DNA of 58,385 nt from Alphaproteobacteria bacterium (GCA_017534945.1 JAFXVB010000023.1:1-58385), one strand, 5' to 3'. Numbered from the stretch's first letter, positions 26,388-58,385 are shown. Notes: generated by a model not told the origin, from the sequence alone. Numbers and translations are program-made.

Positions 26388-26717
26388 ATGAAAAAATTAG
26401 CCACAGTGTTGGGTGTTGTTGGTTCGTTGTCTTTGGTTGCATGTGATTCACATGCGGGTGCAAAAAACGGTGATACGGTAATAATTGATTTTGCTGGATT
26501 TGATGGGGGTGTTCAATTTGATGGCGGCACCGCACAAAATTATCCACTTACATTGGGCAGTGGTCAATTCGTTCCTGGATTTGAAGAACAATTAATTGGT
26601 GCAAATGTTGGTGAAACACGCGATGTGAATATAAGATTCCCAGATAATTATGTGCCAAGCCTTGCCGGGCACCAGGTTGTATTCAAAGTCACCGTAAAAG
26701 AAATCAAATCAAAATAA
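26388..26717 (+). CDS. FKBP-type PPIase lipoprotein (trigger-factor-like domain)
   Basis: LVAC lipobox plus GDTVIIDF...LGSGQFVPGFEEQLIG...FPDNY. Confidence 0.85.
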   Translation: MKKLATVLGVVGSLSLVACDSHAGAKNGDTVIIDFAGFDGGVQFDGGTAQNYPLTLGSGQFVPGFEEQLIGANVGETRDVNIRFPDNYVPSLAGHQVVFKVTVKEIKSK

Positions 26718-42810: not shown

Positions 42811-43044
42811 TTATTTTCTATCTAAATACTTTGCAAATTCTGTAAAACTGGTCCCCGTCAGGTCTAAAATTTTTGCTATGGTTTCTAAGGAAAGCCATCG
42901 TGGTTGTCCATATTTTGTTTTGCGTTTTGATGGATTAAAAGTCGTTGGATCTAAACCTGCCGCACGTGCCATGCCACTGCAACTGAAATGATTTATGCGT
43001 GCCAATTCATCTATTGCATGCCACATATCCCGATTGCGTAACAT
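42811..43044 (-). CDS. alphaproteobacterial Cro/CI-type HTH protein lacking the S24 domain
   Basis: WHAIDELA...SGMARAAGLDPTTFNPSKR...RWLSLETIAKIL. Confidence 0.85.
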   Translation of the reverse strand: MLRNRDMWHAIDELARINHFSCSGMARAAGLDPTTFNPSKRKTKYGQPRWLSLETIAKILDLTGTSFTEFAKYLDRK

Positions 43045-43385
43045 ATAACACTCCCTTTTTACATAAGAATATTATACTAATGGCTGGCGGATTGTGCAAT
43101 GTGCTATAACGCTATACGATAAATATGATAATATTCACAACCAACGCCCGAAGCGGTTGAAATGCTTGCAATACATAAAACTAAAATTTTTGTAAAATTT
43201 GCAAAACCAATATGGGAAATATTCCTAAAATGATCTTCGTCCGCGTCATTATGATAAAAATATATTAAAAAAAGACTGTGTATTTTCGAATCGTTTCCTA
43301 TACGATATTCCAAAAATCATACAAAAGAGAGAATGTGTAAACTAATTTTTACGGAATTAAATTTGATTAGATTAGATTTATAAAT

Positions 43386-43468
43386 TTGACTTTTGTATAT
43401 ATGTGTTATACCCTAACCAGTAAAGAAAGGAGACTAATAAGACATTGGGCGCTTGTTGGTCTTTTTTT
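43386..43468 (+). promoter_or_regulatory. promoter plus leader terminator of the radical-SAM operon
   Basis: TTGACT..TGnTATACC; AGACTAATAAG/CTTGTTGGTCT stem followed by a T-run. Confidence 0.55.
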
Positions 43469-43484
43469 ATTATAAGGATGAACT

Positions 43485-44606
43485 GTGGCAAATAAAACAT
43501 ATAATTACGACATATCCAATAAATTTATTGAATATTTTGACGGAAGGGTTAAACAAGTTTTCTTTTATACAACAGAGGACTGTCACTTACGTTGTAAACA
43601 ATGTTTGTATAAACCTAATTTGTTTTTTCAAATGAATAAAAGACATGAAATCCCGCTAAACCAAATGTGTGAATTGGCGCAAGATGTTTATACACTGGGG
43701 GCACGAAAAGCAACGATTATGGGCGGGGAACCATCAAAATATGGCGATTGCGAACACAAAGATTTAGGTCGTTTTATAAGATATTTGAAAGAAATCGGTT
43801 ATGCTTATGTGAGAATGGATACAAATGGTCAATTTGAAGATGATATGCTGAATTTGCCAGAGATAAAAAAGTTAGACGAGGTTTCTTTTAGCATAGATGG
43901 TTATTGCCCAACAATAAATGATTTCTTACGTGGGGCTGGCGCTTTCGATAAGTGCACTAAAAATATAAAAAGGGCGGTGGATTTAGGATATACTGTTGAC
44001 ATAACATCATGTATACATCCTATGTTGTTACAAAAGGATAAAAAAGGCCAATTAGAAATAGAAAATATGATACTTTTTGCCCAAGATCTTGGGGTTAGAA
44101 ATATCAATTTTCATGTTTTGTTTAAACATGGTTTTCCGATGGATACCTGGACAGAAGATACCGCTGTAAAACCAGAAGATTGGATTGTAGCAAGAGATAT
44201 TTTGGCAGAAAAAGTGGCATCTGGTGCATATAAAATTCATGTTCGTATTCCATACCACTTTGTAACACAAAAGGAATTTGATGCACATCCACAATATTAT
44301 GGGTATTGTCCTGCAAAGCTAGGAGAACGTTTATTAATCCATCCAGATGGTCAAATTAGAATTTGTTCTGGGTTAATCAGTTCAAAATATTGTGTTGCAA
44401 AATATTATGATCATAAAATTGTATGGGAAGAAGGCTATACAAACGAGCTATCTGATCATGATTTAGACAATCCAACACCGTGTACTAATCAAAGCAAGGG
44501 AATGAAATGTGGTAATTACTGTCCATTATGTTTCTCGTTCAAACCATATCAAAGAGAATATGTATGGCAGAATAAATTACAATGGGAACAACAGCATGTT
44601 AAATAA
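43485..44606 (+). CDS. radical SAM protein with a twitch/SPASM-like C-terminus
   Basis: CHLRCKQC, MGGEP, CPAKLGERLLIHPDGQIRIC. Confidence 0.92.
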   Translation: MANKTYNYDISNKFIEYFDGRVKQVFFYTTEDCHLRCKQCLYKPNLFFQMNKRHEIPLNQMCELAQDVYTLGARKATIMGGEPSKYGDCEHKDLGRFIRYLKEIGYAYVRMDTNGQFEDDMLNLPEIKKLDEVSFSIDGYCPTINDFLRGAGAFDKCTKNIKRAVDLGYTVDITSCIHPMLLQKDKKGQLEIENMILFAQDLGVRNINFHVLFKHGFPMDTWTEDTAVKPEDWIVARDILAEKVASGAYKIHVRIPYHFVTQKEFDAHPQYYGYCPAKLGERLLIHPDGQIRICSGLISSKYCVAKYYDHKIVWEEGYTNELSDHDLDNPTPCTNQSKGMKCGNYCPLCFSFKPYQREYVWQNKLQWEQQHVK

Positions 44607-45519
44607 TATTTCTTTTTCATTGACGAACAAGTGCAACAGTCGTTGTAGGATTTGCAATATATGGAAAACGAAGTCGTTTGAAGATGAAATGTCTGTACCG
44701 GATATTAAACATTTATTTGAACATAAGTGTTTTTCACAGGTGGATACTATAAGTTTGACAGGTGGAGAACCATTTTTGAGAAAGGATATTATAGATGTAG
44801 TGTACGGATTAAAAGAAAGCATGCCAAACTTGCAAAGGTTGTTTTTAAACACAAACGCGACCAATATACCCAAAATTGTACAGGTTTGTAAAATATCTAG
44901 CAATTTATTTAACAGTGTTATTCTAAGTGTTTCTTTGGACGGAGAAAAAGAAATTCACGATCGTTTACGTGGAATAAAAAATTACGATAACGTTATCAGT
45001 CTTTTAAAAGTTATGCAGCAACTCCCAGAAATCAATTTGTCTGTATCAATGACGTTGTCCCAAGAAAATACCAATTTAAAGAATTTAAAACACGTGAAAA
45101 ATATTGCCGAAAATAATAATGCAATGTTTAATTTCCGGTTTGCAGACAAGTCATCAACTTACTATAAAAATATGGATTTAGACTTGTCCGTAACAGAAAA
45201 TCAAAAAAAACAGGTTTCTGATTTTATTATTGCGAATTGTTCTGATAATGCTTTTTTAATGTGCTTGAAACAGTTTATAGATACGGGTAATCTAGATTTG
45301 TTGATTCAGAATGGAAAAAATAAATGTCTTGCAGGTAAAAAATTTGTATTTATTCATCCAAATGGTGTAATTTCGCCTTGCTTGTATAGTACACAACATA
45401 TAGCACCAGATGATTTATTATCAAAAGCACCCATTGTTATTGGAACAGACACGCCTTGTCCATGTTGTACAGATTGTGTTATATATCCAATGTTGGAAGA
45501 ACTACAAAAATCAAGATAA
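44596..45519 (+). CDS. radical SAM/twitch protein
   Basis: CNSRCRIC, LTGGEPF, CLAGKKFVFIHPNGVISPC...CPCCTDC. Confidence 0.92.
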   Translation: MLNNISFSLTNKCNSRCRICNIWKTKSFEDEMSVPDIKHLFEHKCFSQVDTISLTGGEPFLRKDIIDVVYGLKESMPNLQRLFLNTNATNIPKIVQVCKISSNLFNSVILSVSLDGEKEIHDRLRGIKNYDNVISLLKVMQQLPEINLSVSMTLSQENTNLKNLKHVKNIAENNNAMFNFRFADKSSTYYKNMDLDLSVTENQKKQVSDFIIANCSDNAFLMCLKQFIDTGNLDLLIQNGKNKCLAGKKFVFIHPNGVISPCLYSTQHIAPDDLLSKAPIVIGTDTPCPCCTDCVIYPMLEELQKSR

Positions 45520-45538
45520 ATAACCAAAAGGAAAAATA

Positions 45539-46216
45539 ATGTACGAAGAATTGGTTGAAATAGTAAAAAATAAATTAAAATCGTCATCTCATGATTTGTC
45601 TCATACTTTCAGGGTATATAGCAATTGTATAAAAATAGCTCAAAACGAACCAAATTGTGTTGTAGATATTGATATTTTACAGGCTGCGGCTTTGCTGCAT
45701 GATATTGCGCGTCCCGAAGAAGACATGGCAAAAGATGGGAAAAAAGTAGATCATGCAATATTAGGCGCACAACAAGCACAAGAAATATTGGTAAATTTAG
45801 GAAAAACACAACAGTTTTCAGAATCTGTAGCTTCTGCAATCAAAACGCATAGGTTCCGCGGAGGGCTTGTGCCAGAAACTATGGAAGCCAAGATATTATT
45901 TGATGCAGATAAATTGGATGTTATTGGTAATATCGGTATTGCTCGTTCGTATATGATAGCTGGGGAACAAAAACAAGATATTTATAATGATTGTGATATA
46001 AATGAGTATGTGAAAAACAACTTGGTTGGTGGTGTTCCATCTGGAAAGATAATAGATATTTCAAAACATACACCGAATATAGAATTCGCGACTAAAAATG
46101 TGAATATCCCAAACAAAATGTTCACCCAAACGGGTAAAGAACTTGCTTTGGCGCGGTTGAAAAGAATGGAAGAATTTTTCAATATATTAAAACAAGAAAT
46201 TAGAGGTTCTATGTAA
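45539..46216 (+). CDS. HD-domain phosphohydrolase
   Basis: HDLSHTFRV, LLHDIAR, FDADKLD.IG.IGIAR. Confidence 0.92.
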   Translation: MYEELVEIVKNKLKSSSHDLSHTFRVYSNCIKIAQNEPNCVVDIDILQAAALLHDIARPEEDMAKDGKKVDHAILGAQQAQEILVNLGKTQQFSESVASAIKTHRFRGGLVPETMEAKILFDADKLDVIGNIGIARSYMIAGEQKQDIYNDCDINEYVKNNLVGGVPSGKIIDISKHTPNIEFATKNVNIPNKMFTQTGKELALARLKRMEEFFNILKQEIRGSM

Positions 46217-47157
46217 TGCATTACACAGAAGAAAATAATAGAATCAAATCGGATTTTATAACGTTTTTTAAAGAAAAGGGGTATGTTTTAGAGCCAAGTG
46301 TTGCATTAAATTCTAAAATAGACCCGTCTGTGTTTTTGGTTGGAAATTGTACGAATGTATTCAAACAACGTTTATTGAATCAAAATATAGGTAATAGCGG
46401 GCATGTGCTGGTGCAACCTGCAATAAATTCAAAAAAAATTCCAGATTTTTTCTCGCAAGAAATAAAACGATTTTCTTCATCATACACAAGTCTTGGGATT
46501 TTGCATGAATTAAAATATTTACACGATGTTATAACCTTGCAATACGAATTTTTTACGCAAATCGTTGGACTTGATTCTGCAAAAATATCCATAAGTGTAA
46601 ATTTTAACGATAAGGATTTTATAGATGCTCTTAAACACTATAGAAATTTGAATATTATAACAGAAAACGAATCTTGCAGAAACAAATTTGGTCAATGCGG
46701 AGATTTTTTGTTAACAGGTAGAAATATTCGTTTTTACTACAACGGAAATAATATTTGTGTATTATCTGTATATCAAAATGGCAAAAAAGATTTAGCAATA
46801 GAGAGTTCTTCAACGATACAAGTATTGTTAATGGAAAAATATTCTTTATCTAACACGATGGCGGTATCTGTATTAAATGACTTTTATCAAGCATCTAATA
46901 ATTATGAATTAAAATATTATGATTGCATATCCACAGTGGCCGAAATGTTACATTCTGGTATAAGGCCAAATTCGTCACATATGGATGGAAGAATTTTAAA
47001 AAAATACATCAAAATTGTAATTCAAACATGCAACAAAATGGATAAAAATTTAAGAAATTATAGTGATCTTATAGCTTTCTATTTAAATTCTACTTATCCT
47101 AATCATTGCATGGATATAAAATCAGTGGTGCAAGAGGCTTTTGAAAAATGTCGATAG
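46216..47157 (+). CDS. truncated, degenerate alanyl-tRNA-synthetase-like protein
   Basis: FITFFKEKGY..EPS, DPSVFLV, VQPAI, GIRPNSSHMDGRILKKYIK align to the AlaRS catalytic and helical domains. Confidence 0.7.
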   Translation: MHYTEENNRIKSDFITFFKEKGYVLEPSVALNSKIDPSVFLVGNCTNVFKQRLLNQNIGNSGHVLVQPAINSKKIPDFFSQEIKRFSSSYTSLGILHELKYLHDVITLQYEFFTQIVGLDSAKISISVNFNDKDFIDALKHYRNLNIITENESCRNKFGQCGDFLLTGRNIRFYYNGNNICVLSVYQNGKKDLAIESSSTIQVLLMEKYSLSNTMAVSVLNDFYQASNNYELKYYDCISTVAEMLHSGIRPNSSHMDGRILKKYIKIVIQTCNKMDKNLRNYSDLIAFYLNSTYPNHCMDIKSVVQEAFEKCR

Positions 47158-48041
47158 TTTTATCATATGATCCACGCACAGAGCCTTATTATGGTTTTTT
47201 TATTAAAAATGGTTACTCATATATCGGACATGGGTATATGCATGTTGTATTTGAGAAAAACGGAATAATTTACAAAGTATTACGCTCGGCATTTGGTACG
47301 GATAAAGATGTAAACAGATTTAAATTTGAAGCAGATATGCTAGAAACAGTGTCCAGGTACGGTGTTCCTGCGGCATCCGTTGTGCATATATATGCACCAG
47401 ACGAATTAATTCCAAATTATTGTGTCTTGGCAGAGAAAAAAATATTGGGTAAAATATATTCGTCCGAAGAATTAAATATAAAAAGAGTGTGCGAGATACA
47501 ATCTGTTTTAAATAAAGTACACAATATATCTCTAGATTTTTTTGGACCAATTTCTACACCGGTTTTACAAGTAAATACTTGGCGCGAATATATGAATTAT
47601 TTAATTAAAAAAGCGCATAAAATCAACAATATATTAAAAATTGATATAAACATACAAAAAGTAGAACAGTATTTTATAACACAATATAATTACAATGATA
47701 AAGCAAAATTTTTAATTCTGGACCCTAATGAAAAAAATTACATATTTGACTCTGATGACAATTTGAACGGTGTCATAGATATTGATCATCCTATTGCTTT
47801 TGATCCTTTATACGAGTTTGCGGGTTTTTTATATTCCAGACCCAAAACATTTTCTTTAATGCATAGGGCTAAAATTATAGATACAAAAGATATGCCTGTA
47901 ATCAAAAATTACGCAATAATTTATACTTTATACGATTTGTGGTTTCGATATGAAAAAAACAAATGTGTTATAAATAAAAGATTGGATTATTATATAAAAA
48001 AGGCTACAATGTTCTTGAAAAACTCAAAGGAAATATTATGA
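47148..48041 (+). CDS. aminoglycoside/choline-type phosphotransferase
   Basis: LDPNEKNYIF, GVIDID, FDPLYEFA. Confidence 0.75.
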   Translation: MSIVLSYDPRTEPYYGFFIKNGYSYIGHGYMHVVFEKNGIIYKVLRSAFGTDKDVNRFKFEADMLETVSRYGVPAASVVHIYAPDELIPNYCVLAEKKILGKIYSSEELNIKRVCEIQSVLNKVHNISLDFFGPISTPVLQVNTWREYMNYLIKKAHKINNILKIDINIQKVEQYFITQYNYNDKAKFLILDPNEKNYIFDSDDNLNGVIDIDHPIAFDPLYEFAGFLYSRPKTFSLMHRAKIIDTKDMPVIKNYAIIYTLYDLWFRYEKNKCVINKRLDYYIKKATMFLKNSKEIL

Positions 48042-48763
48042 AACTTATATTATGTGGCGGGGGCTGGGCAGAAAAAACTGTGATTCCAAATAAATTATTT
48101 GAAACCCTAATTGATACAAGTAAACCTATTTTGTATATCCCGTTGGCCAGAAATGCAGGTGAAGATAATTATGACAGTTGTAAAACATGGCTAGAGGGCG
48201 AATTTCAAAACATAAGACATGGTGAAATCGTTATGTTGCGTTCGGTATCAGAAATAGCAGATAAAAACGTGAATGATTTTACTGGGGTGTTTATTGGTGG
48301 GGGAAATACATATAAATTATTGAAAGAATTAAAAGAAGGCCCCGCATTTGATTGGTTACAAGAATATATACAAACAAACGGCGTCATTTATGGTTGCAGT
48401 GCCGGATCAATTATTTTTGGACACGATATAGATGCTTGTTTATATATGGATGAAAACAATGTTGCACTAACAGATGTGAAAGGGTTTAATTCAATTTTCG
48501 GTTTTTCTTTTACAGCACATTATACCAACAAAAACGAAGAAAAAACAAAAAAAGCAACAGATTATTTGATTGAATATTCTAAAAAAACACTCGTTTTGGC
48601 TTTGCCAGAAGAAGATAGTTTGTATATAAACGGTGATTTAGTTAAAGTCATTGGTTCAAGACCATATTACGTTTTCAATAAAGGTATTAGATTAGAATTT
48701 CAACCAAACACAGAATATACCCAGGATGAGTTTATAAAACAAATAAGCAATGTCCAGATTTAA
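48038..48763 (+). CDS. peptidase family S51 (dipeptidase E-like)
   Basis: ILYIPLA, FIGGGNT, YGCSAGS, TAHY. Confidence 0.88.
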   Translation: MKLILCGGGWAEKTVIPNKLFETLIDTSKPILYIPLARNAGEDNYDSCKTWLEGEFQNIRHGEIVMLRSVSEIADKNVNDFTGVFIGGGNTYKLLKELKEGPAFDWLQEYIQTNGVIYGCSAGSIIFGHDIDACLYMDENNVALTDVKGFNSIFGFSFTAHYTNKNEEKTKKATDYLIEYSKKTLVLALPEEDSLYINGDLVKVIGSRPYYVFNKGIRLEFQPNTEYTQDEFIKQISNVQI

Positions 48764-50306
48764 TGTAAATATTTCCAAATTTGAACAAAGTTCTCTATCT
48801 GATAGTCAGACAAGGGAACTTTTTACATATATAGAAAAAAAATTACCAGATTTGATACGTATTTGCGGGCGCGCTATTAAGTATGTATTACGAAATAATT
48901 TGGATTACAGATTGATAACTGTTGGTAATGATTATGTGATAGTAATAAGAAAAACAACAAAATCAAGCAGTTCAATTTGTATAGGTTATCCTTTTCCAAT
49001 AATGGTGAAAAAAATATATCAGGGTTTATTTGATGGTTTTTGCGTTAATTATTACATAAGGGGGGACAAGTTAAGAAATGCACAACGCATGCATTTGCTT
49101 CAAAAACTCAAAGAAAATAACAAAAATTTTTCTATTAAATTTTGTCATTCTAAATTTGGTTTAAGATTCGCCTTGCAAAGATATATCAAAACCTTAAAAC
49201 CGTATACGTTATATTATCTAGATTTATATAGATTTATAGGAGATTCTTTTTTAAGTACATATATGTTAGATGCTTTTGCAAAAGAATTAAATATAAAACA
49301 AAGTATCGTGTTGTCCCAACATGCGCAAAAACTTTCTGGTTTTTATAAAACAATGGATTTAAATGATTGGGATAAAGTATCAGATAACGGTATATATATT
49401 TTTTCTGATTTATTGGATATAGATGATGCATGGGTTCATGAATTTGCTGTAAAACAAGCTAAAAATGGGGTTTATATATTAAATAGTAGAAATAGTTTTT
49501 TTGTAAAAAATGAGGATACAGTTCAATATTTTGCAATAAAAAATAAACCAGACATATTGCTTACACGTGGTAATATATTTGCATATATGAACAGAAGTAT
49601 TTCATCGTTCATAAAAACGAAACTGCATATATATAAAAAAACTATCAAAATTGAAAACATAAAAAGGATTTATATAAATCCTTTCTCGTCATCAATACAA
49701 AAAAGTTTCTCAGAACAAGAAATGTTTTATCTTGTAAAACAATTAAAAACAGATTTTCCATATGTCGACATTTTTATACCATTTGGTTATGATGTTAGCA
49801 CAAAAATATACAGTATAAAAATTTCAAAAAAGTTAAATTTAAAAAGACTAAAAGACAAAGGGTTTTATGACTTAATCAATAAACTACGTTCAAACCATAT
49901 TGATTTAATAATAACTCCAGATACCGCACTGACGCATATTGCAACAAAATGTAATATAAAAAATATTGTTGTTTTTAAATCTGGTTTTTGGGATCCCCTA
50001 TCTTTGCAATCGCTTGCCGCAGAATCGCCGCTGTCGTTTATTAGTCCAAATCCATATCAATTGCCAATAGTGTTATCATCGGCAAATAATAAAGATTTTC
50101 ATAAAGTTTCAGATGTCATATGCCTAATTCAAAAGGTTAATAGTCAAAAAATTGATAAAATATATAATTTTTGTTCTTTTAAGTTTTCGTTATTTGACAA
50201 TATCATATTGTTCAAATTAAGAAAGATATTAGGGCTAACATACAAATTAAAATATTATAAAAAAAGGAAAACAAATGGTATGTGTGATTCAAAAATGGGT
50301 GTTTAA
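48750..50306 (+). CDS. glycosyltransferase family 9-like protein with an N-terminal extension
   Basis: FIGDSFL, YINPFSS, LIITPDTALTHIA. Confidence 0.7.
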   Translation: MSRFNVNISKFEQSSLSDSQTRELFTYIEKKLPDLIRICGRAIKYVLRNNLDYRLITVGNDYVIVIRKTTKSSSSICIGYPFPIMVKKIYQGLFDGFCVNYYIRGDKLRNAQRMHLLQKLKENNKNFSIKFCHSKFGLRFALQRYIKTLKPYTLYYLDLYRFIGDSFLSTYMLDAFAKELNIKQSIVLSQHAQKLSGFYKTMDLNDWDKVSDNGIYIFSDLLDIDDAWVHEFAVKQAKNGVYILNSRNSFFVKNEDTVQYFAIKNKPDILLTRGNIFAYMNRSISSFIKTKLHIYKKTIKIENIKRIYINPFSSSIQKSFSEQEMFYLVKQLKTDFPYVDIFIPFGYDVSTKIYSIKISKKLNLKRLKDKGFYDLINKLRSNHIDLIITPDTALTHIATKCNIKNIVVFKSGFWDPLSLQSLAAESPLSFISPNPYQLPIVLSSANNKDFHKVSDVICLIQKVNSQKIDKIYNFCSFKFSLFDNIILFKLRKILGLTYKLKYYKKRKTNGMCDSKMGV

Positions 50307-50730
50307 TGATAATATAAGCATGAAACAACAAAGTATGCTCTTATCCGGATTACGTGGGTGTGACGGTATATATAACGATGATATATCAAAAACAATAATC
50401 AGGAAAATTCGGTGCACCGTATTAAATAATGCTGCCGACAATAATACAAATTTTATGCGAGGGGACATATCTCTAGATGTATTAGCTAATTTTGCCAAAA
50501 GTCGTAATAAATATCCTGTACATTTTTATATGCATGTTTGTTATTGTTGTGAAATCATTGGTTTTAAACATCCTGATGAAAATATCAGAAAATGGTTTTA
50601 TAAGGCTTATTGTTTATTAGTCAAAGCTCTTTACCTTAACCCAGAAACAGAACAAGAATGCGATGAAAGACTTCAAGACGGTAAAACAATATCTTTTGAT
50701 GATTATGCAAAAAACATAATCACATATTAG
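50275..50730 (+). CDS. hypothetical protein
   Basis: 151-aa ORF; LLSGLRGCDG, PVHFYMH. Confidence 0.7.
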   Translation: MVCVIQKWVFNDNISMKQQSMLLSGLRGCDGIYNDDISKTIIRKIRCTVLNNAADNNTNFMRGDISLDVLANFAKSRNKYPVHFYMHVCYCCEIIGFKHPDENIRKWFYKAYCLLVKALYLNPETEQECDERLQDGKTISFDDYAKNIITY

Positions 50731-51361
50731 AATTTTGGTTATAAAGTTCAGGGTTAAGGTTCTTGTCGTTATACATCTTTAGTTGTTTGTAAACAATCGG
50801 TCTTTTGGTACCATTAATGTATTCTGTAATCAAATTTTTAAACGCAGAAACCAAATCCTTTTGTTGTTGATTCAGTTTATTTAATCTATCAACAATCATT
50901 TTATAATCGTTGTCTTTGGATTTGGCTAATGTTCTTCGTTTTTTCTCTGCGTTCATATGGTATATTTTTAAAGATAATATTGACAACCTATCAATTATAC
51001 TACCAATAGATTCCGTATTAAATGGTATAGACGAATCATTAACAATAAAATCTTTTAATAATAATATAAAGTTGTCATCAATTTGTTCGTAAAATTCTGT
51101 TCGTTGTTTATTAAGAAAATCAATTTCTCGCTTACAATCAGCAATGTGCTTATCAGAAATATCTAGATTTCGTGTTACATCTTCAATGTGCCATAATTTA
51201 AAATTCATAAAATGATTATTGATAACATTTTGGATAACTAAATCAGCATTATCAACTAAAAAATCAATGTTTTTATGCCATTTTCGTGTTAATGTGGCTT
51301 GGGTGTAAACAATTTTATCCACAAGAATACACAATTTTTCTTTCAAATCAGCCGAACCCAT
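50720..51361 (-). CDS. DUF4254 family protein
   Basis: LWHIED, ESIGSIIDRLSILSLKIYHM, YKQLKMYND. Confidence 0.85.
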   Translation of the reverse strand: MGSADLKEKLCILVDKIVYTQATLTRKWHKNIDFLVDNADLVIQNVINNHFMNFKLWHIEDVTRNLDISDKHIADCKREIDFLNKQRTEFYEQIDDNFILLLKDFIVNDSSIPFNTESIGSIIDRLSILSLKIYHMNAEKKRRTLAKSKDNDYKMIVDRLNKLNQQQKDLVSAFKNLITEYINGTKRPIVYKQLKMYNDKNLNPELYNQNSNM

Positions 51362-52785: not shown

Positions 52786-53976
52786 ATGTTTTTAAACTTT
52801 AAAATCAAAAATTATCGTTCAATAGGTCAAGAAATTGTGGTGGATTTCGCTATATCTGATAGCCAGAAAATAAGTGCTTATTCAGAAGTGAATGGCAAGG
52901 CCATAAATAACATAGCTTGTATTGTTGGTCCTAATGCTAGTGGTAAAAGCAACATTCTCAAGGGAATAGTATTGTTCTTGCGTTACATGTGTAGGTCGTA
53001 TTCAATTCCCAGTTTTAGAGATGCGAGCCTTTTTGATACACATTTTTGTTGTAAGGGTCAACCAATAGAGTTTTCAACTGAATTTATAGACGATGACACA
53101 CAATATAAATACGAGATATCAATTCTTAATAATGTTGTTCTGAAGGAAACATTTTCTGTATTAAATGAAGACACAAAACGGTATAACATAGTTTTTAAAA
53201 GAGAAGCTTATAAGCCTATTCAGACAACGATTGATATAAATGAACAAGATTTAGAAAGACTACAAAACGATATGTCTTTGTTATCTTTGATGCTCGAATT
53301 GAATTATTTTAATAAAAACGAATTGAAAATATTAAAAAGCTTTTTAACAAACGTTAGTCCAGAGTTTTATGTTGGTTATCCAAATCCTCTGGTGAGATTA
53401 AATGCATTAACAAGAAGACTCGAACAGGATGGTTTGTTGTTGGAAGAACTAATAGAAGAATTGAAAAACATATATACTGGGATAACGGGGTTGTCTTTGG
53501 ACAAACTAAAAAATGCTAATGCTAATGCGCTTGGTGAAAAGGAGTATTCGACTATAATAGCTCATCACAAGATAGCTAATTCAAATCATCCTTTGCTCAT
53601 TTTGGAGGAGTCTAGCGGCACATTACATTATATAGAGCTGTTTATACATTTATACGAAATTTTCAAAAATGGTGGATTATTGATATCTGATGAATTGGAG
53701 CAAAGTTTACACCCCGATATCACCAATAGAATCATAAGCAGGTTTTTGGATAAAAATAAAAATCCGAATAATGCGCAGATTTTATTTACAACACATAATC
53801 CATGGTTTTTACAAGATTTAACAAAAACACAAATCTTTATAGCAGAAAAGAATACTAAAGGTGAGACGGAATTAACAAGATTGGATGATATACAAGGCGT
53901 TAGAAACGATGAAAACTATTTCATAAAGTATTTGGCGGGAGAATATGATGGTCGCCCAAAGATAAAGGATGTGTAG
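52786..53976 (+). CDS. AAA_21/AbiEii-like ATPase
   Basis: IVGPNASGKSN, ESSGT, LISDELEQSLHP, QILFTTHNP. Confidence 0.9.
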   Translation: MFLNFKIKNYRSIGQEIVVDFAISDSQKISAYSEVNGKAINNIACIVGPNASGKSNILKGIVLFLRYMCRSYSIPSFRDASLFDTHFCCKGQPIEFSTEFIDDDTQYKYEISILNNVVLKETFSVLNEDTKRYNIVFKREAYKPIQTTIDINEQDLERLQNDMSLLSLMLELNYFNKNELKILKSFLTNVSPEFYVGYPNPLVRLNALTRRLEQDGLLLEELIEELKNIYTGITGLSLDKLKNANANALGEKEYSTIIAHHKIANSNHPLLILEESSGTLHYIELFIHLYEIFKNGGLLISDELEQSLHPDITNRIISRFLDKNKNPNNAQILFTTHNPWFLQDLTKTQIFIAEKNTKGETELTRLDDIQGVRNDENYFIKYLAGEYDGRPKIKDV

Positions 53977-54721
53977 GGTTATGAATAGGAAAAAGCGTAA
54001 TTCTATAGTCGTCGTACATGAGGGATATCGGGAGGGCTATTTTGTGGAATACATATCACAATTTAGCCCTTTGAGGGTAAATTTGCAACCCTGTTATGGC
54101 GAAAGTGCTACACATGTACTCAATATGGCTTTCAAGCGTTCTGATTTGGGACTCAGAGTGGTGGCTTTTTTTGATGAAGATTTTGAAGGTATAGAACAAC
54201 GTAAAATAGAATCTGAAACTTTTAAAATTTTATCAGCACGTTGGGGGACAGAAAATGAAATTTTGTCTAGTACTTCGTACAAAGAATTGCAGGGTCTTAA
54301 TAGTAAGAACAAAAACCCTGTATTGGCTGTATCAAACCCGCAATCAATAGAGGGGCTTATATTAACTATTCTTGATGTGCCAGAATCGGAACTTGAGGGT
54401 AAATCTACAAATGTATTAAAAGGTAAATTAGATGTATTGCTTAACAAAGTTGTTCTTAAGCAGGAAGACGCGGAACTTATCGCTTTATATGATGAAAAAA
54501 TTGCAAAACATAACGCGGAGATACAAAAATTATTAGAAGAGGAGCCTAAAAATAATACATTGTTAAAATATCATAATGGAAAAAAACAAGAATTTGGACG
54601 TAAGAAAAATGAAGTAATTTTTAAGCGTTTTTTAGCCAACAATATCAGTTTAGAGATTTTACAGAATAAGCGTGTCACAATAAAATCACTAGATATTTTA
54701 TTAAGCGAATTAGGAATATAA
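53969..54721 (+). CDS. RloB-like TOPRIM protein
   Basis: IVVVHEG.REGYF, AFFDED, VSNP. Confidence 0.7.
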   Translation: MCRVMNRKKRNSIVVVHEGYREGYFVEYISQFSPLRVNLQPCYGESATHVLNMAFKRSDLGLRVVAFFDEDFEGIEQRKIESETFKILSARWGTENEILSSTSYKELQGLNSKNKNPVLAVSNPQSIEGLILTILDVPESELEGKSTNVLKGKLDVLLNKVVLKQEDAELIALYDEKIAKHNAEIQKLLEEEPKNNTLLKYHNGKKQEFGRKKNEVIFKRFLANNISLEILQNKRVTIKSLDILLSELGI

Positions 54722-54727
54722 AAATTA

Positions 54728-55009
54728 TTATTTATGTCTAGCTTTATGACATTTATCACAAATAGAAACAAGCCAGCCAATCGGTTCGCGACCGATGTTT
54801 TTTGCGTATTTTAGATGGTGAACTTGGGTTGCGCGTGAACCACAATAAACGCAGCGCCAATGGTCTCGTTTTAATACAAGATAACGTTTTCGTTGCCAGG
54901 CTTCGGATTGTAAATAGTCGTTTCTATAATAATCTCTGCGCAATTTACGTTTGAAACGGTTAATAAATACACATACAGCAACAAAGATAACAGCAGTTAA
55001 AAATTCCAT
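54728..55009 (-). CDS. HNH endonuclease with an N-terminal hydrophobic segment
   Basis: CVYCG..ATQVHH...LVSICDKCH. Confidence 0.85.
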   Translation of the reverse strand: MEFLTAVIFVAVCVFINRFKRKLRRDYYRNDYLQSEAWQRKRYLVLKRDHWRCVYCGSRATQVHHLKYAKNIGREPIGWLVSICDKCHKARHK

Positions 55010-55033
55010 TGCAATTTATAACCTATCCAAGTA

Positions 55034-56008
55034 TTATGCCGGCAGGTACACTTTTCTAAGAGGTAATAAAAGTTTACCTTCTGCTCTAAAGTTATCATAG
55101 TGCAGGGTAACTAACTCTGCTAACATATTTAAATCTATCAATGTTAGAGGTATTTCAGAACGATCTGCTTCATATTTAGCTTCTTTTGTAAAACCGCCTG
55201 TGCTGATATACAGACATTTATCTCCTTTTCTACGTCCGCCCATAAAACTTCGTATTTTTTGTGTACCCATTTGGCCCTCTCTATGCTTGACCTCCACAAA
55301 AATACGGGGTTCTTCCAATCCGAGGCCGTCCTTAGAAGCAAAGACATCTGTGCCTCTGTCAGAACCTTTTTGAGTTCGTCTAGCAATATACCCCATTGCA
55401 TTTAATATTTCTTTCGCCAATTCTTCCATATCATCAGGTGCTAAAGAAAGAATTTTATCTTTTAATAATTCAACAGAGTTTTCTAAAAGATTACCTGTTT
55501 GTTGTTCTGTTTCTTGTTCTTTTTCATCTTCTGTTTTTTCTTGAATCTTTTTACCTTCAAGTATATTTCTGAATTCTGATTCTATTTCTTTTGTTACACT
55601 AAACAAGGTTTGAGATGCCCCCAAATAATTTTTAGCAGTTATAGACAGAAGATCTCTAGAAACAGTCTTTTTATTCCATTTTACTTTCCGGATATTAGGT
55701 CTTTCCTCTTTTTTAATAAAAGAATAATCGCTTGTGATTTCTGCTATATGATACACGCGTAATGAAGAATCATACGTTATAACGAGATCTCCAATTTTCA
55801 TTTTGTTAGCAAAATTATCGAGCATACTTGCCCAGACGGGGATAGATTTGTATTTGTTTGGGTATTCTTTTGATAAAGCTTGTTTTATATTTTCTCGACT
55901 TTTACCATGTAGATCACCTATCAACCCCCAACCAAGAGCAACAATATTTTTCCCTATAAATTCCGGTAATAAATCGCCGCCTAAAGATCGCAGCATCCAC
56001 ATAGACAT
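55034..56008 (-). CDS. Mrr-family (type IV-like) restriction endonuclease
   Basis: MWMLR, DRGTDVFA, VEVKHR, ISTGGFT..A..EA. Confidence 0.88.
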   Translation of the reverse strand: MSMWMLRSLGGDLLPEFIGKNIVALGWGLIGDLHGKSRENIKQALSKEYPNKYKSIPVWASMLDNFANKMKIGDLVITYDSSLRVYHIAEITSDYSFIKKEERPNIRKVKWNKKTVSRDLLSITAKNYLGASQTLFSVTKEIESEFRNILEGKKIQEKTEDEKEQETEQQTGNLLENSVELLKDKILSLAPDDMEELAKEILNAMGYIARRTQKGSDRGTDVFASKDGLGLEEPRIFVEVKHREGQMGTQKIRSFMGGRRKGDKCLYISTGGFTKEAKYEADRSEIPLTLIDLNMLAELVTLHYDNFRAEGKLLLPLRKVYLPA

Positions 56009-56171
56009 AGTTTACTCCTATAGTATCTGTTAATCACTTATGATTATACACCCAAACCCACCTTTTTGCAATATGGAGTAATACGGTTCAAATTTTATAA
56101 TGTAAAAATATTTGTTCTCTTGACTTTACATCTTATTTTCGGGTACGTTCGCTTAAACGGGAAATAATGAT

Positions 56172-57056
56172 ATGGTGGACACAAAGAGACAACATTATGT
56201 GCCAAGGTTTTTGTTGAAACACTTTTGTGCGGATGGTCATACAATAAATGTTACAGACATCATTGAAAATAGAACATATCCTGCAAACATTATGAATGTG
56301 GCACAAGAAAAATATTTTTATGAGTTAGATACAGATAAGGGCAAGGTCTCATTAGAGAAACAATATGCTGGGTTAGAAGACAAAGTTGCTCCAATTATTG
56401 ATAAAATTGTAAAAACAGAATCTATAGGATGGTTTAAGGATGAGCATTTTCAAATTTTAGAAGATTTCATTTTGTGTCAGTTTTATAGAACCAGAAAATA
56501 TGTAAATCATGTGAAAAGTTTTCTGCAATCAAATAACATACCTTTATTAGATTTGGTAGATCAAGAAGGAAACATAAAGAAAACTTTAAATTGTGAGGAT
56601 ATTGGTATAGATGATAATGTTGCCAGGGTTATGAGTTATAATTTTTTGTATCATGTTGAACACGATGACGTTATCCGTGATGCTATAGCATCGATGGAAT
56701 GGACATTGTTCAAAGCAACTGGTACGCAGAATTTTATCACGTCTGATAACCCGACAGTATTAAACAATCATTTGGCATTTATGGAAGATAACGGTAAAAC
56801 AAGCGGTTTTGAATTGCCTCATTCGCAAATATTTTTGCCAATTTCATCAAAGTTAATATTAACATTGACGGCCGAAACTATGGCGGAAGAGGCCAGGACA
56901 AACTTATTAAAAGTTATGATGAAAGGAATTCCAGTGGTAATTAGTGATGCGTTTAAATGTTCTGTTACTGGTGAGGCAGCACGATGTCCAGACGGACTTG
57001 TCAAACTGTTTAACGAATCGCAAAAACGCAATGCAGAACGGTTCCTTTTTGACTAA
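56172..57056 (+). CDS. DUF4238 domain protein
   Basis: QHYVPRFLLKHF, FITSDNP, FLPIS. Confidence 0.88.
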   Translation: MVDTKRQHYVPRFLLKHFCADGHTINVTDIIENRTYPANIMNVAQEKYFYELDTDKGKVSLEKQYAGLEDKVAPIIDKIVKTESIGWFKDEHFQILEDFILCQFYRTRKYVNHVKSFLQSNNIPLLDLVDQEGNIKKTLNCEDIGIDDNVARVMSYNFLYHVEHDDVIRDAIASMEWTLFKATGTQNFITSDNPTVLNNHLAFMEDNGKTSGFELPHSQIFLPISSKLILTLTAETMAEEARTNLLKVMMKGIPVVISDAFKCSVTGEAARCPDGLVKLFNESQKRNAERFLFD

Positions 57057-57435
57057 TTTTAATGTTTTTCTAACAATTCGCTTAATAAATATAACAAAAA
57101 AGGGGATAAAAACACATAAAATACCTTGTTTTTACGCTCTGAATATCGCAGAAAACAGGCGTTTTAAAAATGCAAGCAAAAAAGCGGCTTTTTTGCTCAA
57201 AAAGGTTAATGAAAAACATGATAAAATACTGTATATTGTGGTTGTGGATGAATTGAGACACAAAATGTTGATAAAACATCCTGGGGATATTGCTCTAACA
57301 ACATCCCCAAAAACGGTTACCCAAATATAATAAGGGGCACCTAACTCACTCCTTATTATAGCAAAATTTTATGCTATTGGCAAATATTTTGTTTTTTTGG
57401 GTGCATGGTAACTTGACTAAAATAAGGAGTTTAAT

Positions 57436-57696
57436 ATGTCAAGATGTTTAAGAACATGGGACTTGGAAGTCCATCACAAAAATGTTAACGGTGGTAACGG
57501 ACTGGATAATGCGAAAGTATTATGCCATAAATGTCACGTTAATACCAGTTCTTATGGTGATACAGGACACAATAGCCCAGAACCCTTTTCTCAAGAAACA
57601 AAAGATAAGGCGCTAAGACGTGCAAATTATCAATGTGAATGCACAAAAGGTGATTGCTGTTGGTCGCAAGACCGGTTTATTATTTGTTCTACTTGA
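57436..57696 (+). CDS. small HNH-like protein, apparently circularly permuted
   Basis: LEVHH...DNAKVLCHKCH precedes FSQETKDKALRRANYQCEC. Confidence 0.7.
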   Translation: MSRCLRTWDLEVHHKNVNGGNGLDNAKVLCHKCHVNTSSYGDTGHNSPEPFSQETKDKALRRANYQCECTKGDCCWSQDRFIICST

Positions 57697-57741
57697 CATT
57701 AACCCTTGTTTTGGGCTAAGTTTTTCCTAAGGAAAGGAATT

Positions 57742-58385
57742 ATGTTCGGTATAGAAAATAGGCGGTATATAGGTAACAAATGCAAGCTAATGCCATGGAT
57801 ACGTGATTTGATTGTTGCAGAATGTCCAAGGTGTGTGTCTTTGTTTGATGTTTTTGCGGGTACAGGCTGCGTATCGGCATGTTTGCTCGATCTGTATGAC
57901 AATATCATAATTAACGATTTCTTGTTTTCTAATGAAGTAATATATAAGGCTTTCTTCGGAAAGGGGGTGTATAATCAAAAAAAGTTACAGAAGATAAAAG
58001 AAACATATTTAAATATACCAGCGACGCAACTACAAAAGTCGAATTATGTATCTGATATGTTTGGAAATAAATTCTTTTCATATAATGATGCGGTGAAAAT
58101 AGGTTATATTAGACAAGATATAGAAAATCTATATTTGAACAAAAAAATAAATGCAAAAGAACATGATATATTATTAGCGTCGTTATTATATTCTGCGGAT
58201 CATACGGCAAACACAGTGGGCCATTATGATGCTTTTATAAAAAAATCGGGATCGGCCCGGCCTTTTGAATTTGATTTGATATCACCAATAGATACAAAAA
58301 ACAAAAAAATAAAGATATACAGAGAAGATGCAAATAAATTAGCCGAACATGTTTGTGCGGATATTGCTTTTATAGATCCACCATA
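57742..58385 (+). CDS. Dam/M.FokI-like DNA adenine methyltransferase, partial (runs off the window; absent from the ORF track)
   Basis: GGAAAGGA SD; RRYIGNK, DVFAGTG, INDF, NTVGHYDAF, FIDPP(Y) at the window end. Confidence 0.92.
   Translation, partial: MFGIENRRYIGNKCKLMPWIRDLIVAECPRCVSLFDVFAGTGCVSACLLDLYDNIIINDFLFSNEVIYKAFFGKGVYNQKKLQKIKETYLNIPATQLQKSNYVSDMFGNKFFSYNDAVKIGYIRQDIENLYLNKKINAKEHDILLASLLYSADHTANTVGHYDAFIKKSGSARPFEFDLISPIDTKNKKIKIYREDANKLAEHVCADIAFIDPP

Follow-up and report, generated by a model that had tools for sequence, protein, structure and literature searches.

A radical SAM cassette with an AlaRS-like protein in a gut alphaproteobacterium: a candidate route to an aminoacyl-nucleoside-type antimetabolite

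Positions 43485-51361 of a contig from Alphaproteobacteria bacterium (GCA_017534945.1, JAFXVB010000023.1) raise the question of what a compact run of enzyme genes, matching no studied pathway, produces. The window analysed here is the whole contig (58,385 nt) of a 0.909-Mb, 46-contig assembly; Candidatus Enterousia is a gut lineage with reduced genomes (PMC12306168). Open reading frame (ORF) calling recovered eight close-set plus-strand genes and one convergent DUF4254 gene on the minus strand, so that all nine ORFs of the original prediction are present. They encode two radical S-adenosylmethionine (SAM) enzymes (R1 and R2, also rSAM1 and rSAM2), an HD phosphohydrolase, a short alanyl-tRNA synthetase (AlaRS)-like protein (AlaL), an APH-fold kinase, a peptidase S51 protein, a GT9-like glycosyltransferase (GTL), a 151-aa protein (p151) and the DUF4254 protein. 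The answer favoured here, which is tentative, is a cytoplasmic pathway whose product would be a nucleoside antimetabolite carrying aminoacyl, sugar or phosphate groups, the cassette being one variant of a widespread, unstudied family built on R1 and the HD enzyme.

Successive plus-strand neighbours are spaced by -11, +19, -1, -10, -4, -14 and -32 nt (overlaps negative), no terminator-like plus-strand site was detected by sequence scan inside the eight-gene run, and a promoter scan of the region gave fewer matches than shuffled sequence. The cassette has a GC content of 30.3%, compared with 38.8% for the genome, and is the lowest-GC 8-kb stretch of the assembly; only 0.25% of 7.9-kb windows are equally low, every one of them overlapping the cassette region. 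The expectation of a higher AT content than in the core genes is thereby borne out. No membrane-like segment, signal segment or transporter was found among the nine cassette proteins, and the cassette borders yielded no tRNA gene, riboswitch, T-box or Rfam family.

Cassette genes co-occur far beyond chance. AlaL has 14 close relatives in a word-indexed collection of 5.8 billion proteins, their contigs carrying the same genes, and the gene set recurs in loci L002-L009, L025, L026, L031 and L034-L043. The gene order of the window is kept in L005/L008 and L007, DUF4254 being absent from L005/L008. A split form, consisting of rSAM1-rSAM2-HD-S51-GTL, pheST on the opposite strand, AlaL-kinase and DUF4254, is found in L002-L004 and L031. 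Identity to the window proteins in L002-L009 (gut Alphaproteobacteria) is 80-86% for R1, 68-80% for HD and 40-60% for AlaL, the kinase and GTL, and R1 and HD, having the highest identity among the cassette proteins, therefore form the constrained core. R1 is the most conserved gene (80-86% identity in related cassettes, 40-77% for other genes) and the anchor of the cassette family. A real multi-enzyme cluster with an unrecognised gene combination had been proposed, and both parts hold: the genes are conserved together in many loci, and no characterised pathway matching them was found in NCBIfam, PADLOC or the literature. The treatment of DUF4254 as an addition to the operon has to be given up, the gene being a core member of the cassette family.

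R1 (43485..44606, plus strand) is a radical SAM protein with a cysteine-rich C-terminal domain of the auxiliary-cluster type. It matches Pfam Radical_SAM (PF04055) with 46.1 bits against a cut-off of 29.5, and Fer4_12 as well. The SAM-cluster motif CHLRCKQC (CxxxCxxC) lies at C33/C37/C40, and C275, C294, C333 and C349 are invariant in 26 diverse homologues. Comparison of the R1 profile with the PDB gave MoaA as the best match (5e-12); viperins came next (1.6e-7 at best), then BlsE, which decarboxylates nucleoside sugars (3e-4). Among solved structures R1 is thus closest to MoaA and viperin, both of which use nucleoside triphosphates. In annotated plasmids and phages, the relatives of R1 were limited to actinomycete radical SAM proteins of about 26% identity on plasmids, with none in phages.

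R2 (44596..45519, plus strand) is a radical SAM enzyme of the twitch/SPASM type, matching PF04055 with 52.9 bits (cut-off 29.5) and carrying the SAM motif CNSRCRIC and the C-terminal cysteine pattern CX12GX4C followed by PCPCCTDC. Its start is probably the ATG at 44596 and not the alternative GTG at 44509, because homologues have 307 aa. It scores 65.6 bits with NCBIfam N_Twi_rSAM, under the cut-off of 170, and matches SkfB in the PDB at 8e-9. Membership of the MoaA, viperin, ScmF, SkfB, PapB or BtrN-type radical SAM families was rejected, the best NCBIfam scores being 53-66 bits against cut-offs of 170-650; the MoaA model gives 41-56 bits (cut-off 284) and the viperin model 26 bits (cut-off 180). 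The analogy with BtrN drawn in the original prediction is accordingly generic only.

The neighbourhoods of R1 elsewhere bear on its substrate. R1 has 353 or more homologues at 48% identity or above, and ORFs were called and clustered in 80 metagenomic loci with an R1 alignment, giving 63 non-redundant loci: 19 of type A, with R1 at least 56% identical, and 44 others. Type A loci contain HD beside R1, one to three copies of R2, an APH-type kinase, GTL and DUF4254 as two ORFs; HD adjoins R1 in 18 of the 19, the exception (L033) being a 4.9-kb contig. This core of HD, R1, DUF4254, R2, kinase and GTL extends to distant environmental lineages, where a class II aminoacyl-tRNA synthetase (aaRS)-like neighbour is nearly always present, in the form of AlaL, dedicated phenylalanyl-tRNA synthetase (PheRS) paralogues, or both. 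Among the 44 other loci, R1 is adjacent to an EndoIV-type AP_endonuc_2 gene in 19 and to an ExoIII-type gene in 12 (together 31/44), often along with CYTH and DUF5680, or with a PNP_UDP_1 protein. As far as found, this pairing of R1 with AP endonucleases has not been described before. In these loci outside type A (L046-L062, L082-L106) R1 is 46-56% identical. One recurrent unit is EndoIV-R1-CYTH-DUF5680, and a second consists of R1, an unknown 284-aa protein, a PNP_UDP_1 protein and ExoIII.

Further contexts include one with a Tmk-like kinase, a carbamoyltransferase, two ATP-grasp ligases, a major facilitator superfamily (MFS) protein, a methyltransferase and two class II aaRS-like genes, and another in which R1 lies between dCMP deaminase and NUDIX genes inside a DarTG/TIR island. 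Beyond the cassette, the partners of R1 are predicted nucleotide or nucleic-acid phosphoesterases and kinases, and this context, together with the relatedness to MoaA and viperin, suggests that R1 acts on nucleotides or on the ends of nucleic acids. Nucleotidyltransferases occur in several variants (RfaE-II-like in L010, L034 and L043; NTP_transferase in L025), which suggests a kinase, nucleotidyltransferase and GT9-like route for an activated sugar. A longer form of R1, about 500-515 aa as called, is present in human gut metagenome contigs (L066-L081, L086, L090-L096), where its neighbours include a LysR regulator, receiver-domain proteins, a MazF-like toxin and a large serine recombinase, giving these long-R1 loci the look of a mobile element.

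AlaL (46216..47157, plus strand, 313 aa) matches Pfam tRNA-synt_2c with 30.9 bits (cut-off 30.3) over its N-terminal 150 residues only. Alignment with AlaRS N-terminal regions by hhalign has a probability of 94.9% over 302 columns, corresponding to E. coli AlaRS positions 1-371, so that AlaL spans the aminoacylation domain and the beginning of the tRNA-recognition domain. In place of the motif-2 arginine AlaL has Asn71, a residue shared by all members of the cassette subclade, and in place of the motif-3 arginine it has Ser197. A true AlaRS was rejected on these grounds: AlaL has only 313 aa, both class II arginines are gone, and TIGR00344 gives 22 bits against a cut-off of 457. An exhaustive profile search placed AlaL in a wider family with at least 223 representatives (50% identity clusters, E<=1e-10; P0152-P0299), which are stand-alone proteins of 300-420 aa. 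In 40 aligned members the motif-2 arginine is kept in most and the motif-3 arginine in none, and AlaL is a derived branch of this larger AlaRS-like family.

The ascamycin pathway provides the closest parallel to AlaL. AcmF (Zheng et al. 2024, reviewed in PMC12945691) is a truncated AlaRS-like protein without most of the residues for ATP binding and alanine activation. Its alanine donor is Ala-tRNA-Ala and its acceptor a nucleoside sulfamate, and the alanyl group is taken off by AcmE, a hydrolase distinct from AcmF. AlaL shares the traits of AcmF, as the latter is known by description: it is a stand-alone AlaRS aminoacylation domain with the start of the tRNA-recognition domain, truncated to the same domains, and its ATP-binding arginines are lost. 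The cassette also resembles a nucleoside-type cluster in having a hydrolase able to remove an aminoacyl cap, and by analogy AlaL and S51 fit the logic of AcmF and AcmE. Unlike the cassette, the acm cluster (AcmF with AcmD/AcmE) has no counterpart of the two radical SAM enzymes, HD, the APH kinase, the GT9-like protein or DUF4254; the cassette in turn implies no sulfamate chemistry, and its host is a tiny-genome gut alphaproteobacterium rather than Streptomyces.

The link with class II aaRSs extends to PheRS. Sufficient flanking sequence is available for 16 type A loci, and 15 of them carry genes for AlaL and/or PheS/PheT-like proteins; in none of the 44 other R1 loci does such a gene lie within six genes. 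The 1.0-Mb genome holding L009 (G151) has two pheS genes. In a maximum-likelihood (ML) tree its cassette-linked PheS groups with the cassette-linked PheS of L002/L031 (100/100), apart from a housekeeping group (94/97) that joins the PheS of the window genome with that of G152, which is an Enterousia genome, and with the other PheS encoded in the genome of L009; the PheRS paralogue therefore moves with the cassette. The window genome carries only one pheS, which lies on a different contig, and its cassette holds AlaL only. In sediment-type loci, highly divergent PheS-like proteins fused to FDX-ACB flank the cassette. Stand-alone PheS-like proteins of 377-388 aa border the cassette in metagenomes from sediment or groundwater (L037 586-1725 and 7910-9040; L040 2402-3541 and 10911-12074; L026 14444-15580), with very long tree branches; one has a precomputed FDX-ACB match, recalling monomeric mitochondrial PheRS. 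The PheRS paralogue link, the wider R1 family and the adjoining defence island described below are points beyond the original prediction.

Taken with the AP endonucleases adjoining R1 in the 31 loci, the part of the tRNA-recognition region kept in AlaL and the PheRS paralogues travelling with the cassette give some grounds for a system of tRNA or nucleic-acid end modification or repair. The targets of R1 and R2 would then be DNA or a terminal tRNA nucleotide, with end healing left to the HD, kinase and AP-endonuclease-type partners and tRNA recognition to the aaRS-like proteins. In CCA-adding enzymes the HD domain works at the 3' end of tRNA, which also counts in favour. This explanation is held to be improbable: no RNA ligase, nuclease or known RNA-repair protein accompanies the cassette and no tRNA gene is nearby, the GT9-like transferase and the S51 peptidase have no obvious role in it, and the nucleotidyltransferases of the variants are of the sugar-activating type.

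Clusters for nucleoside antibiotics offer precedents for the remaining enzymes. In albomycin, the cluster includes the radical SAM enzymes AbmM and AbmJ, the kinase AbmG and a seryl-tRNA synthetase (SerRS) paralogue, and the product targets an aaRS. For 4'-thiothymidine, a trio of radical SAM enzyme, kinase and NTPase, the last conferring self-resistance, makes a nucleoside antibiotic (PMC12691670), so small nucleotide-centred radical SAM clusters do make antimetabolites. The cassette resembles albomycin and the 4'-thiothymidine genes thmABC in clustering radical SAM enzymes with a kinase for nucleosides or nucleotides and an enzyme that hydrolyses nucleotides, a comparison made by description, the likeness of R1 and R2 to solved radical SAM structures being at superfamily level. 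It differs in that its kinase has the APH fold and its hydrolase is of the HD type, in the extra GT9-like and DUF4254 proteins, and in having no siderophore or peptide-assembly part.

In the favoured aminoacyl-nucleoside pathway, R1 and then R2 would remodel a nucleotide or nucleotide-sugar by radical chemistry, at its sugar or its base. The HD enzyme may trim or detoxify the phosphates of the remodelled nucleotide, the APH-fold kinase may phosphorylate a hydroxyl for activation or self-protection, and GTL, perhaps with DUF4254, would join a sugar to the scaffold. AlaL would move an aminoacyl group from charged tRNA onto the product in the manner of AcmF; without the ATP-site arginines, canonical aminoacyl-adenylate formation by AlaL is not expected. 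S51 may remove the aminoacyl cap, for immunity or activation. The pathway would end in an antimetabolite of the aminoacyl-nucleoside type, plausibly directed against a class II aaRS or nucleic-acid synthesis and used on competitors or phages. Every step of this chemistry is inferred from sequence and context; what the analysis demonstrates is the gene content of the cassette, its conservation and mobility, how its proteins relate to known families, the missing ATP-site arginines of AlaL and the tie to PheRS paralogues. An aminoacylated or phosphorylated sugar or nucleoside had been suggested before, and that direction fits the MoaA/viperin-like R1, its nucleotide partners, the nucleotidyltransferase variants and the AcmF-like AlaL, the chemistry itself staying conjectural.

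Several points weigh against this pathway. Similarities to characterised enzymes are at superfamily level only, with all NCBIfam equivalogs far under their cut-offs. Neither an exporter nor a membrane protein is present in the cassette, which is odd for a secreted antibiotic, and the earlier proposal of a secreted inhibitor is not supported by a cassette devoid of transporter, membrane and signal segments. The cassette has no nucleotidyltransferase and a profile search of the genome found no CTP_transf_like protein, which leaves the GTL donor unexplained. The genome has one pheS, making the immunity route unclear were PheRS the target. The likeness of AlaL to AcmF is drawn from the published description of AcmF and not from its sequence, and S51 and DUF4254 are missing from some otherwise intact copies. 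The AP-endonuclease partners could also mean that R1 acts on DNA or RNA instead of free nucleotides.

A related and less likely proposal is a conflict system centred on aaRSs and nucleotide pools, with R1 as a nucleotide-directed radical SAM lineage parallel to viperin. In one option the R1 product would be used directly, and the EndoIV/ExoIII, CYTH, NUDIX or HD partners would shield the nucleic acids and nucleotide pools of the producer. In the other, the product would be converted into a glyco-nucleoside mimicking an aminoacyl-adenylate, loaded by AlaL from charged tRNA, and the dedicated PheRS paralogues of sister cassettes would be the matching immunity genes. Were the aminoacyl-nucleoside pathway confirmed, about 1% of a 0.9-Mb gut symbiont genome would be given to a mobile pathway for an undescribed aminoacyl-nucleoside-type compound. 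It would entail radical SAM chemistry of a new kind acting on nucleotides, an independent second example of an AlaRS-derived aminoacyl-tRNA-dependent transferase and possibly a natural class II aaRS inhibitor from an uncultured gut lineage. First functional handles would also be gained on DUF4254, on at least 220 AlaRS-like protein clusters and on the AP-endonuclease-paired radical SAM family. Chemistry aside, the conserved anatomy makes the cassette a well-defined target for heterologous expression.

The other cassette proteins were assigned with differing strength. Of the domain labels given earlier, Radical_SAM (twice), HD, AlaRS-like (for the N-terminal part), S51 and DUF4254 are confirmed by Pfam; GT9-like is supported by structure and not by Pfam, and the APH label is sub-threshold and backed by homologues. 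The HD phosphohydrolase (45539..46216, plus strand), of the YedJ/YpgQ type, matches PF01966 with 55.5 bits and, in the PDB, 2pq7 (4e-25), YedJ 3gw7 (4e-14) and the 5dqv family (6e-11); against the PRK10119 equivalog it reaches 77 bits, below the cut-off of 286. The kinase (47148..48041, plus strand) is a putative small-molecule kinase of the protein-kinase-like APH fold, with 21.2 bits for Pfam APH (cut-off 23.2) and with Dx4N and IDxD motifs. It shares a BLAST cluster with L025/L026 proteins carrying precomputed APH, choline-kinase or fructosamine-kinase hits, and stays next to AlaL where the cassette is split; a PDB sequence search with it returned nothing significant. The S51 protein (48038..48763, plus strand), a PepE-like serine hydrolase, matches PF03575 with 94.1 bits (cut-off 23.9) and falls short of the PepE equivalog (63 vs 156 bits). 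In alignment with Lmo0363/PepE from the PDB, GCSAG falls on GESAG, keeping the GxSAG serine, and the histidine of AHY falls on that of PHY. S51 is not in L009 nor in several distant type A loci.

GTL (48750..50306, plus strand, 518 aa) has no significant Pfam hit, GT9 (PF01075) scoring 14.9 bits against a gathering score of 22. Its AlphaFold2 (AF2) model has a predicted local distance difference test (pLDDT) score of 89.5 and a predicted TM (pTM) score of 0.88, and shows a GT-B fold with an additional N-terminal domain of about 150 aa. The best Foldseek matches are WaaC (2H1F; E 7.8e-7, target TM 0.61) and the GT9 protein 3TOV (3.7e-6). Some homologues have precomputed PF01075 matches, and lengths in distant type A loci are 577-613 aa. 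On the basis of the model, the label GT9-like holds structurally for this 518-aa protein.

DUF4254 (50720..51361, minus strand, 213 aa) is convergent with p151, overlapping its stop by 11 nt. It matches PF14063 with 137.9 bits (cut-off 27) and is the sole copy in the genome. The AF2 model (pLDDT 87.4) is an all-helical five-helix bundle of two homologous repeats, and a Foldseek search of the PDB with it gave nothing at E<=0.001. The idea of an all-alpha NTP pyrophosphatase like MazG was considered and rejected, with no PDB match at that threshold and no MazG-type protein in the top 50. In distant type A loci, DUF4254 takes the form of two small ORFs directly 3' of R1, matching the two halves of the 213-aa protein. 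In Flavobacteria, a published note ties DUF4254 to heptosyltransferases of the RfaF type (PMC9425974), a linkage echoed by its pairing here with a GT9-like protein; a literature search on DUF4254, DUF5680 and the gene combination gave nothing beyond it.

The GT-B fold nearest to the heptosyltransferase WaaC, that DUF4254-RfaF linkage in Flavobacteria (PMC9425974), the LpxC (lipid A) gene of the genome and the RfaE-II-like adenylyltransferases in three cassette variants would suit an envelope function. GTL and DUF4254 might place a radical SAM-modified, phosphorylated, aminoacylated sugar on the lipopolysaccharide (LPS) inner core or another surface glycan, changing phage receptors or host interaction. 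APH-fold kinases also resemble WaaP/Kdo kinases in fold. Like WaaC/WaaF (GT9) with their Bacteroidota DUF4254 neighbour, the cassette joins a GT9-type protein to DUF4254; unlike them, GTL is sub-threshold for Pfam GT9 and has the extra N-terminal domain, the genome has no waa or ADP-heptose genes, and the context is one of nucleotide and aaRS enzymes and not of LPS genes. Envelope modification is considered to have only a small chance of being correct: the cassette encodes neither a flippase or ligase nor any membrane protein or signal peptide, a further GT9 and an ADP-heptose-type nucleotidyltransferase are both missing from the genome, the cassette occurs in 1/151 genomes of the order, a remnant lies in a Bacilli genome, and the aaRS-like linkage and the nucleotide-type partners of R1 are left unexplained. 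The surface modification of the original prediction fares no better, since despite LpxC there is no canonical GT9 and no CTP_transf_like or HldE-type protein.

The two small ORFs after R1 in distant loci could also be read as peptide substrates. In such a pathway for a ribosomally synthesised and post-translationally modified peptide (RiPP), two SPASM/twitch radical SAM enzymes would crosslink a precursor, perhaps the small DUF4254 proteins, S51 would trim it and glycosylation would follow. SkfB, PapB and WgkB, which mature peptides, are among the top matches of R2 in NCBIfam and the PDB, all maturase scores being far under the family cut-offs. DUF4254, in contrast to a precursor, is a confidently folded 213-aa bundle, absent from L005/L008 and elsewhere tied to heptosyltransferases without a radical SAM enzyme; no leader-peptide-like ORF, RiPP recognition element (RRE), exporter or usual protease is present, and the partners of R1 are nucleotide enzymes. 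A RiPP pathway is thus regarded as very improbable.

p151 (50275..50730, plus strand) is a conserved Cys/His-rich protein without a hit in Pfam, NCBIfam, PADLOC or PHROGs. Homologues with 63-76% identity occupy the same position in L005/L008 and L007 only. Its strongly conserved core reads HFYxHxCxCCExIGFKHPD ... LYLNPETE, and p151 is restricted to Enterousia-type cassettes with the gene order of the window.

Downstream of the cassette, 52786..58383 holds a defence island, which is context and lies outside the cassette. The AbiL pair (52786-54721) comprises a 396-aa AAA_21 ATPase (AbiLi) and an overlapping 250-aa partner with a weak AbiLii match. Next, at 55034-58383, come a nuclease of the Mrr type that matches PDC-S02 (a candidate defence family), a DUF4238 protein and a type II methylase of the D12 kind, which the end of the contig truncates (PADLOC, Pfam). 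PADLOC matches are at 2e-64 for AbiLi, 2e-4 for AbiLii, 7e-83 for PDC-S02, 7e-10 for DUF4238-Pers and 2e-67 for MTase_II. The cassette itself was rejected as a known PADLOC 2.0 system, with generic pVip and Cas3-HD hits only (15-36 bits).

Adjacency to AbiL, PDC-S02, DUF4238 and a restriction-modification (R-M) methylase raises the possibility of an intracellular anti-phage system, which would overlap the aminoacyl-nucleoside pathway in chemistry and differ from it in purpose. Infection would trigger a toxic or chain-terminating nucleotide analogue, HD, S51 and the kinase would curb self-toxicity, and nothing would be secreted. Other copies lie beside a reverse transcriptase (RT) and helix-turn-helix (HTH) pair, a 1615-aa YjiV_N helicase and DarTG/AAA_13/TIR genes; the cassette has no exporter, R1 resembles viperin, and the AP endonucleases by R1 orthologues could clear 3'-blocking analogues from host DNA. 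Prokaryotic viperins (pVips) are comparable in that a viperin/MoaA-related radical SAM enzyme stands beside kinases and nucleotide hydrolases, often in defence islands. They differ from R1, which scores 26-29 bits on viperin models (cut-off 180) and has a big conserved Cys-rich C-terminal domain that viperins do not have, and from the cassette with its seven further enzymes. PADLOC gives generic radical SAM similarity only (29-36 bits), the NCBIfam viperin model is reached with 26 bits of the required 180, eight enzymes with no obvious sensor are unlike known defence systems, and location in a variable island is weak evidence. An anti-phage role is therefore judged unlikely.

The distribution of the cassette is sparse. 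An AlaL profile search of 151 genomes of the same order found the window's own genome only, and among GTDB species representatives AlaL is limited to one Enterousia genome, one 'Alphaproteobacteria bacterium' and one Bacilli metagenome-assembled genome (MAG), where it is decayed. In the Bacilli MAG (JBKDZP01), L010 8031-10258 contains a cut-down rSAM2, an intact RfaE-II-like cytidylyltransferase, a cut-down HD and an 85-aa AlaL stub, a remnant that reads as evidence of cross-phylum transfer followed by loss. The single occurrence among 151 genomes, the sparse GTDB occurrence and the Bacilli remnant together mark the cassette as accessory, sporadic and transferable; it is a mobile unit, acquired horizontally, and its GC content, the lowest of the assembly, and the end of synteny with close relatives after ackA speak for this as well.

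Synteny with the three closest relatives, whose AckA is 95% identical, breaks off directly behind ackA, and no gene from 41.6 kb onward adjoins it there. From about 42.3 kb to its end the contig is AT-rich, and this stretch is missing beside ackA in these relatives. An empty insertion site was sought there and rejected, the region being rearranged and not simply empty, and the window contig ending within the island. In L118 (G166:C31), whose AckA is 95% identical, ackA abuts an inverted homologue of window 26388-26714 (compared with window 19351-41558), so the block at 26.7-41.6 kb is inverted or rearranged between close relatives; one breakpoint of this rearrangement is the beginning of the island.

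Upstream of R1, a conserved non-coding 5' leader of about 175 nt (43311..43484, plus strand) has about 75% nucleotide identity to sequence 5' of R1 in the nearest copies of the cassette, namely L029, L030 and, in part, L005. An Rfam search of this stretch gave no family; it could be a leader or regulatory element. Further upstream, a 77-aa ORF (42811-43044, minus strand) has homologues with 45-57% identity near the cassette in L007 (17123-17350) and L031 (4312-4542), and a homologue also in the relative L120.

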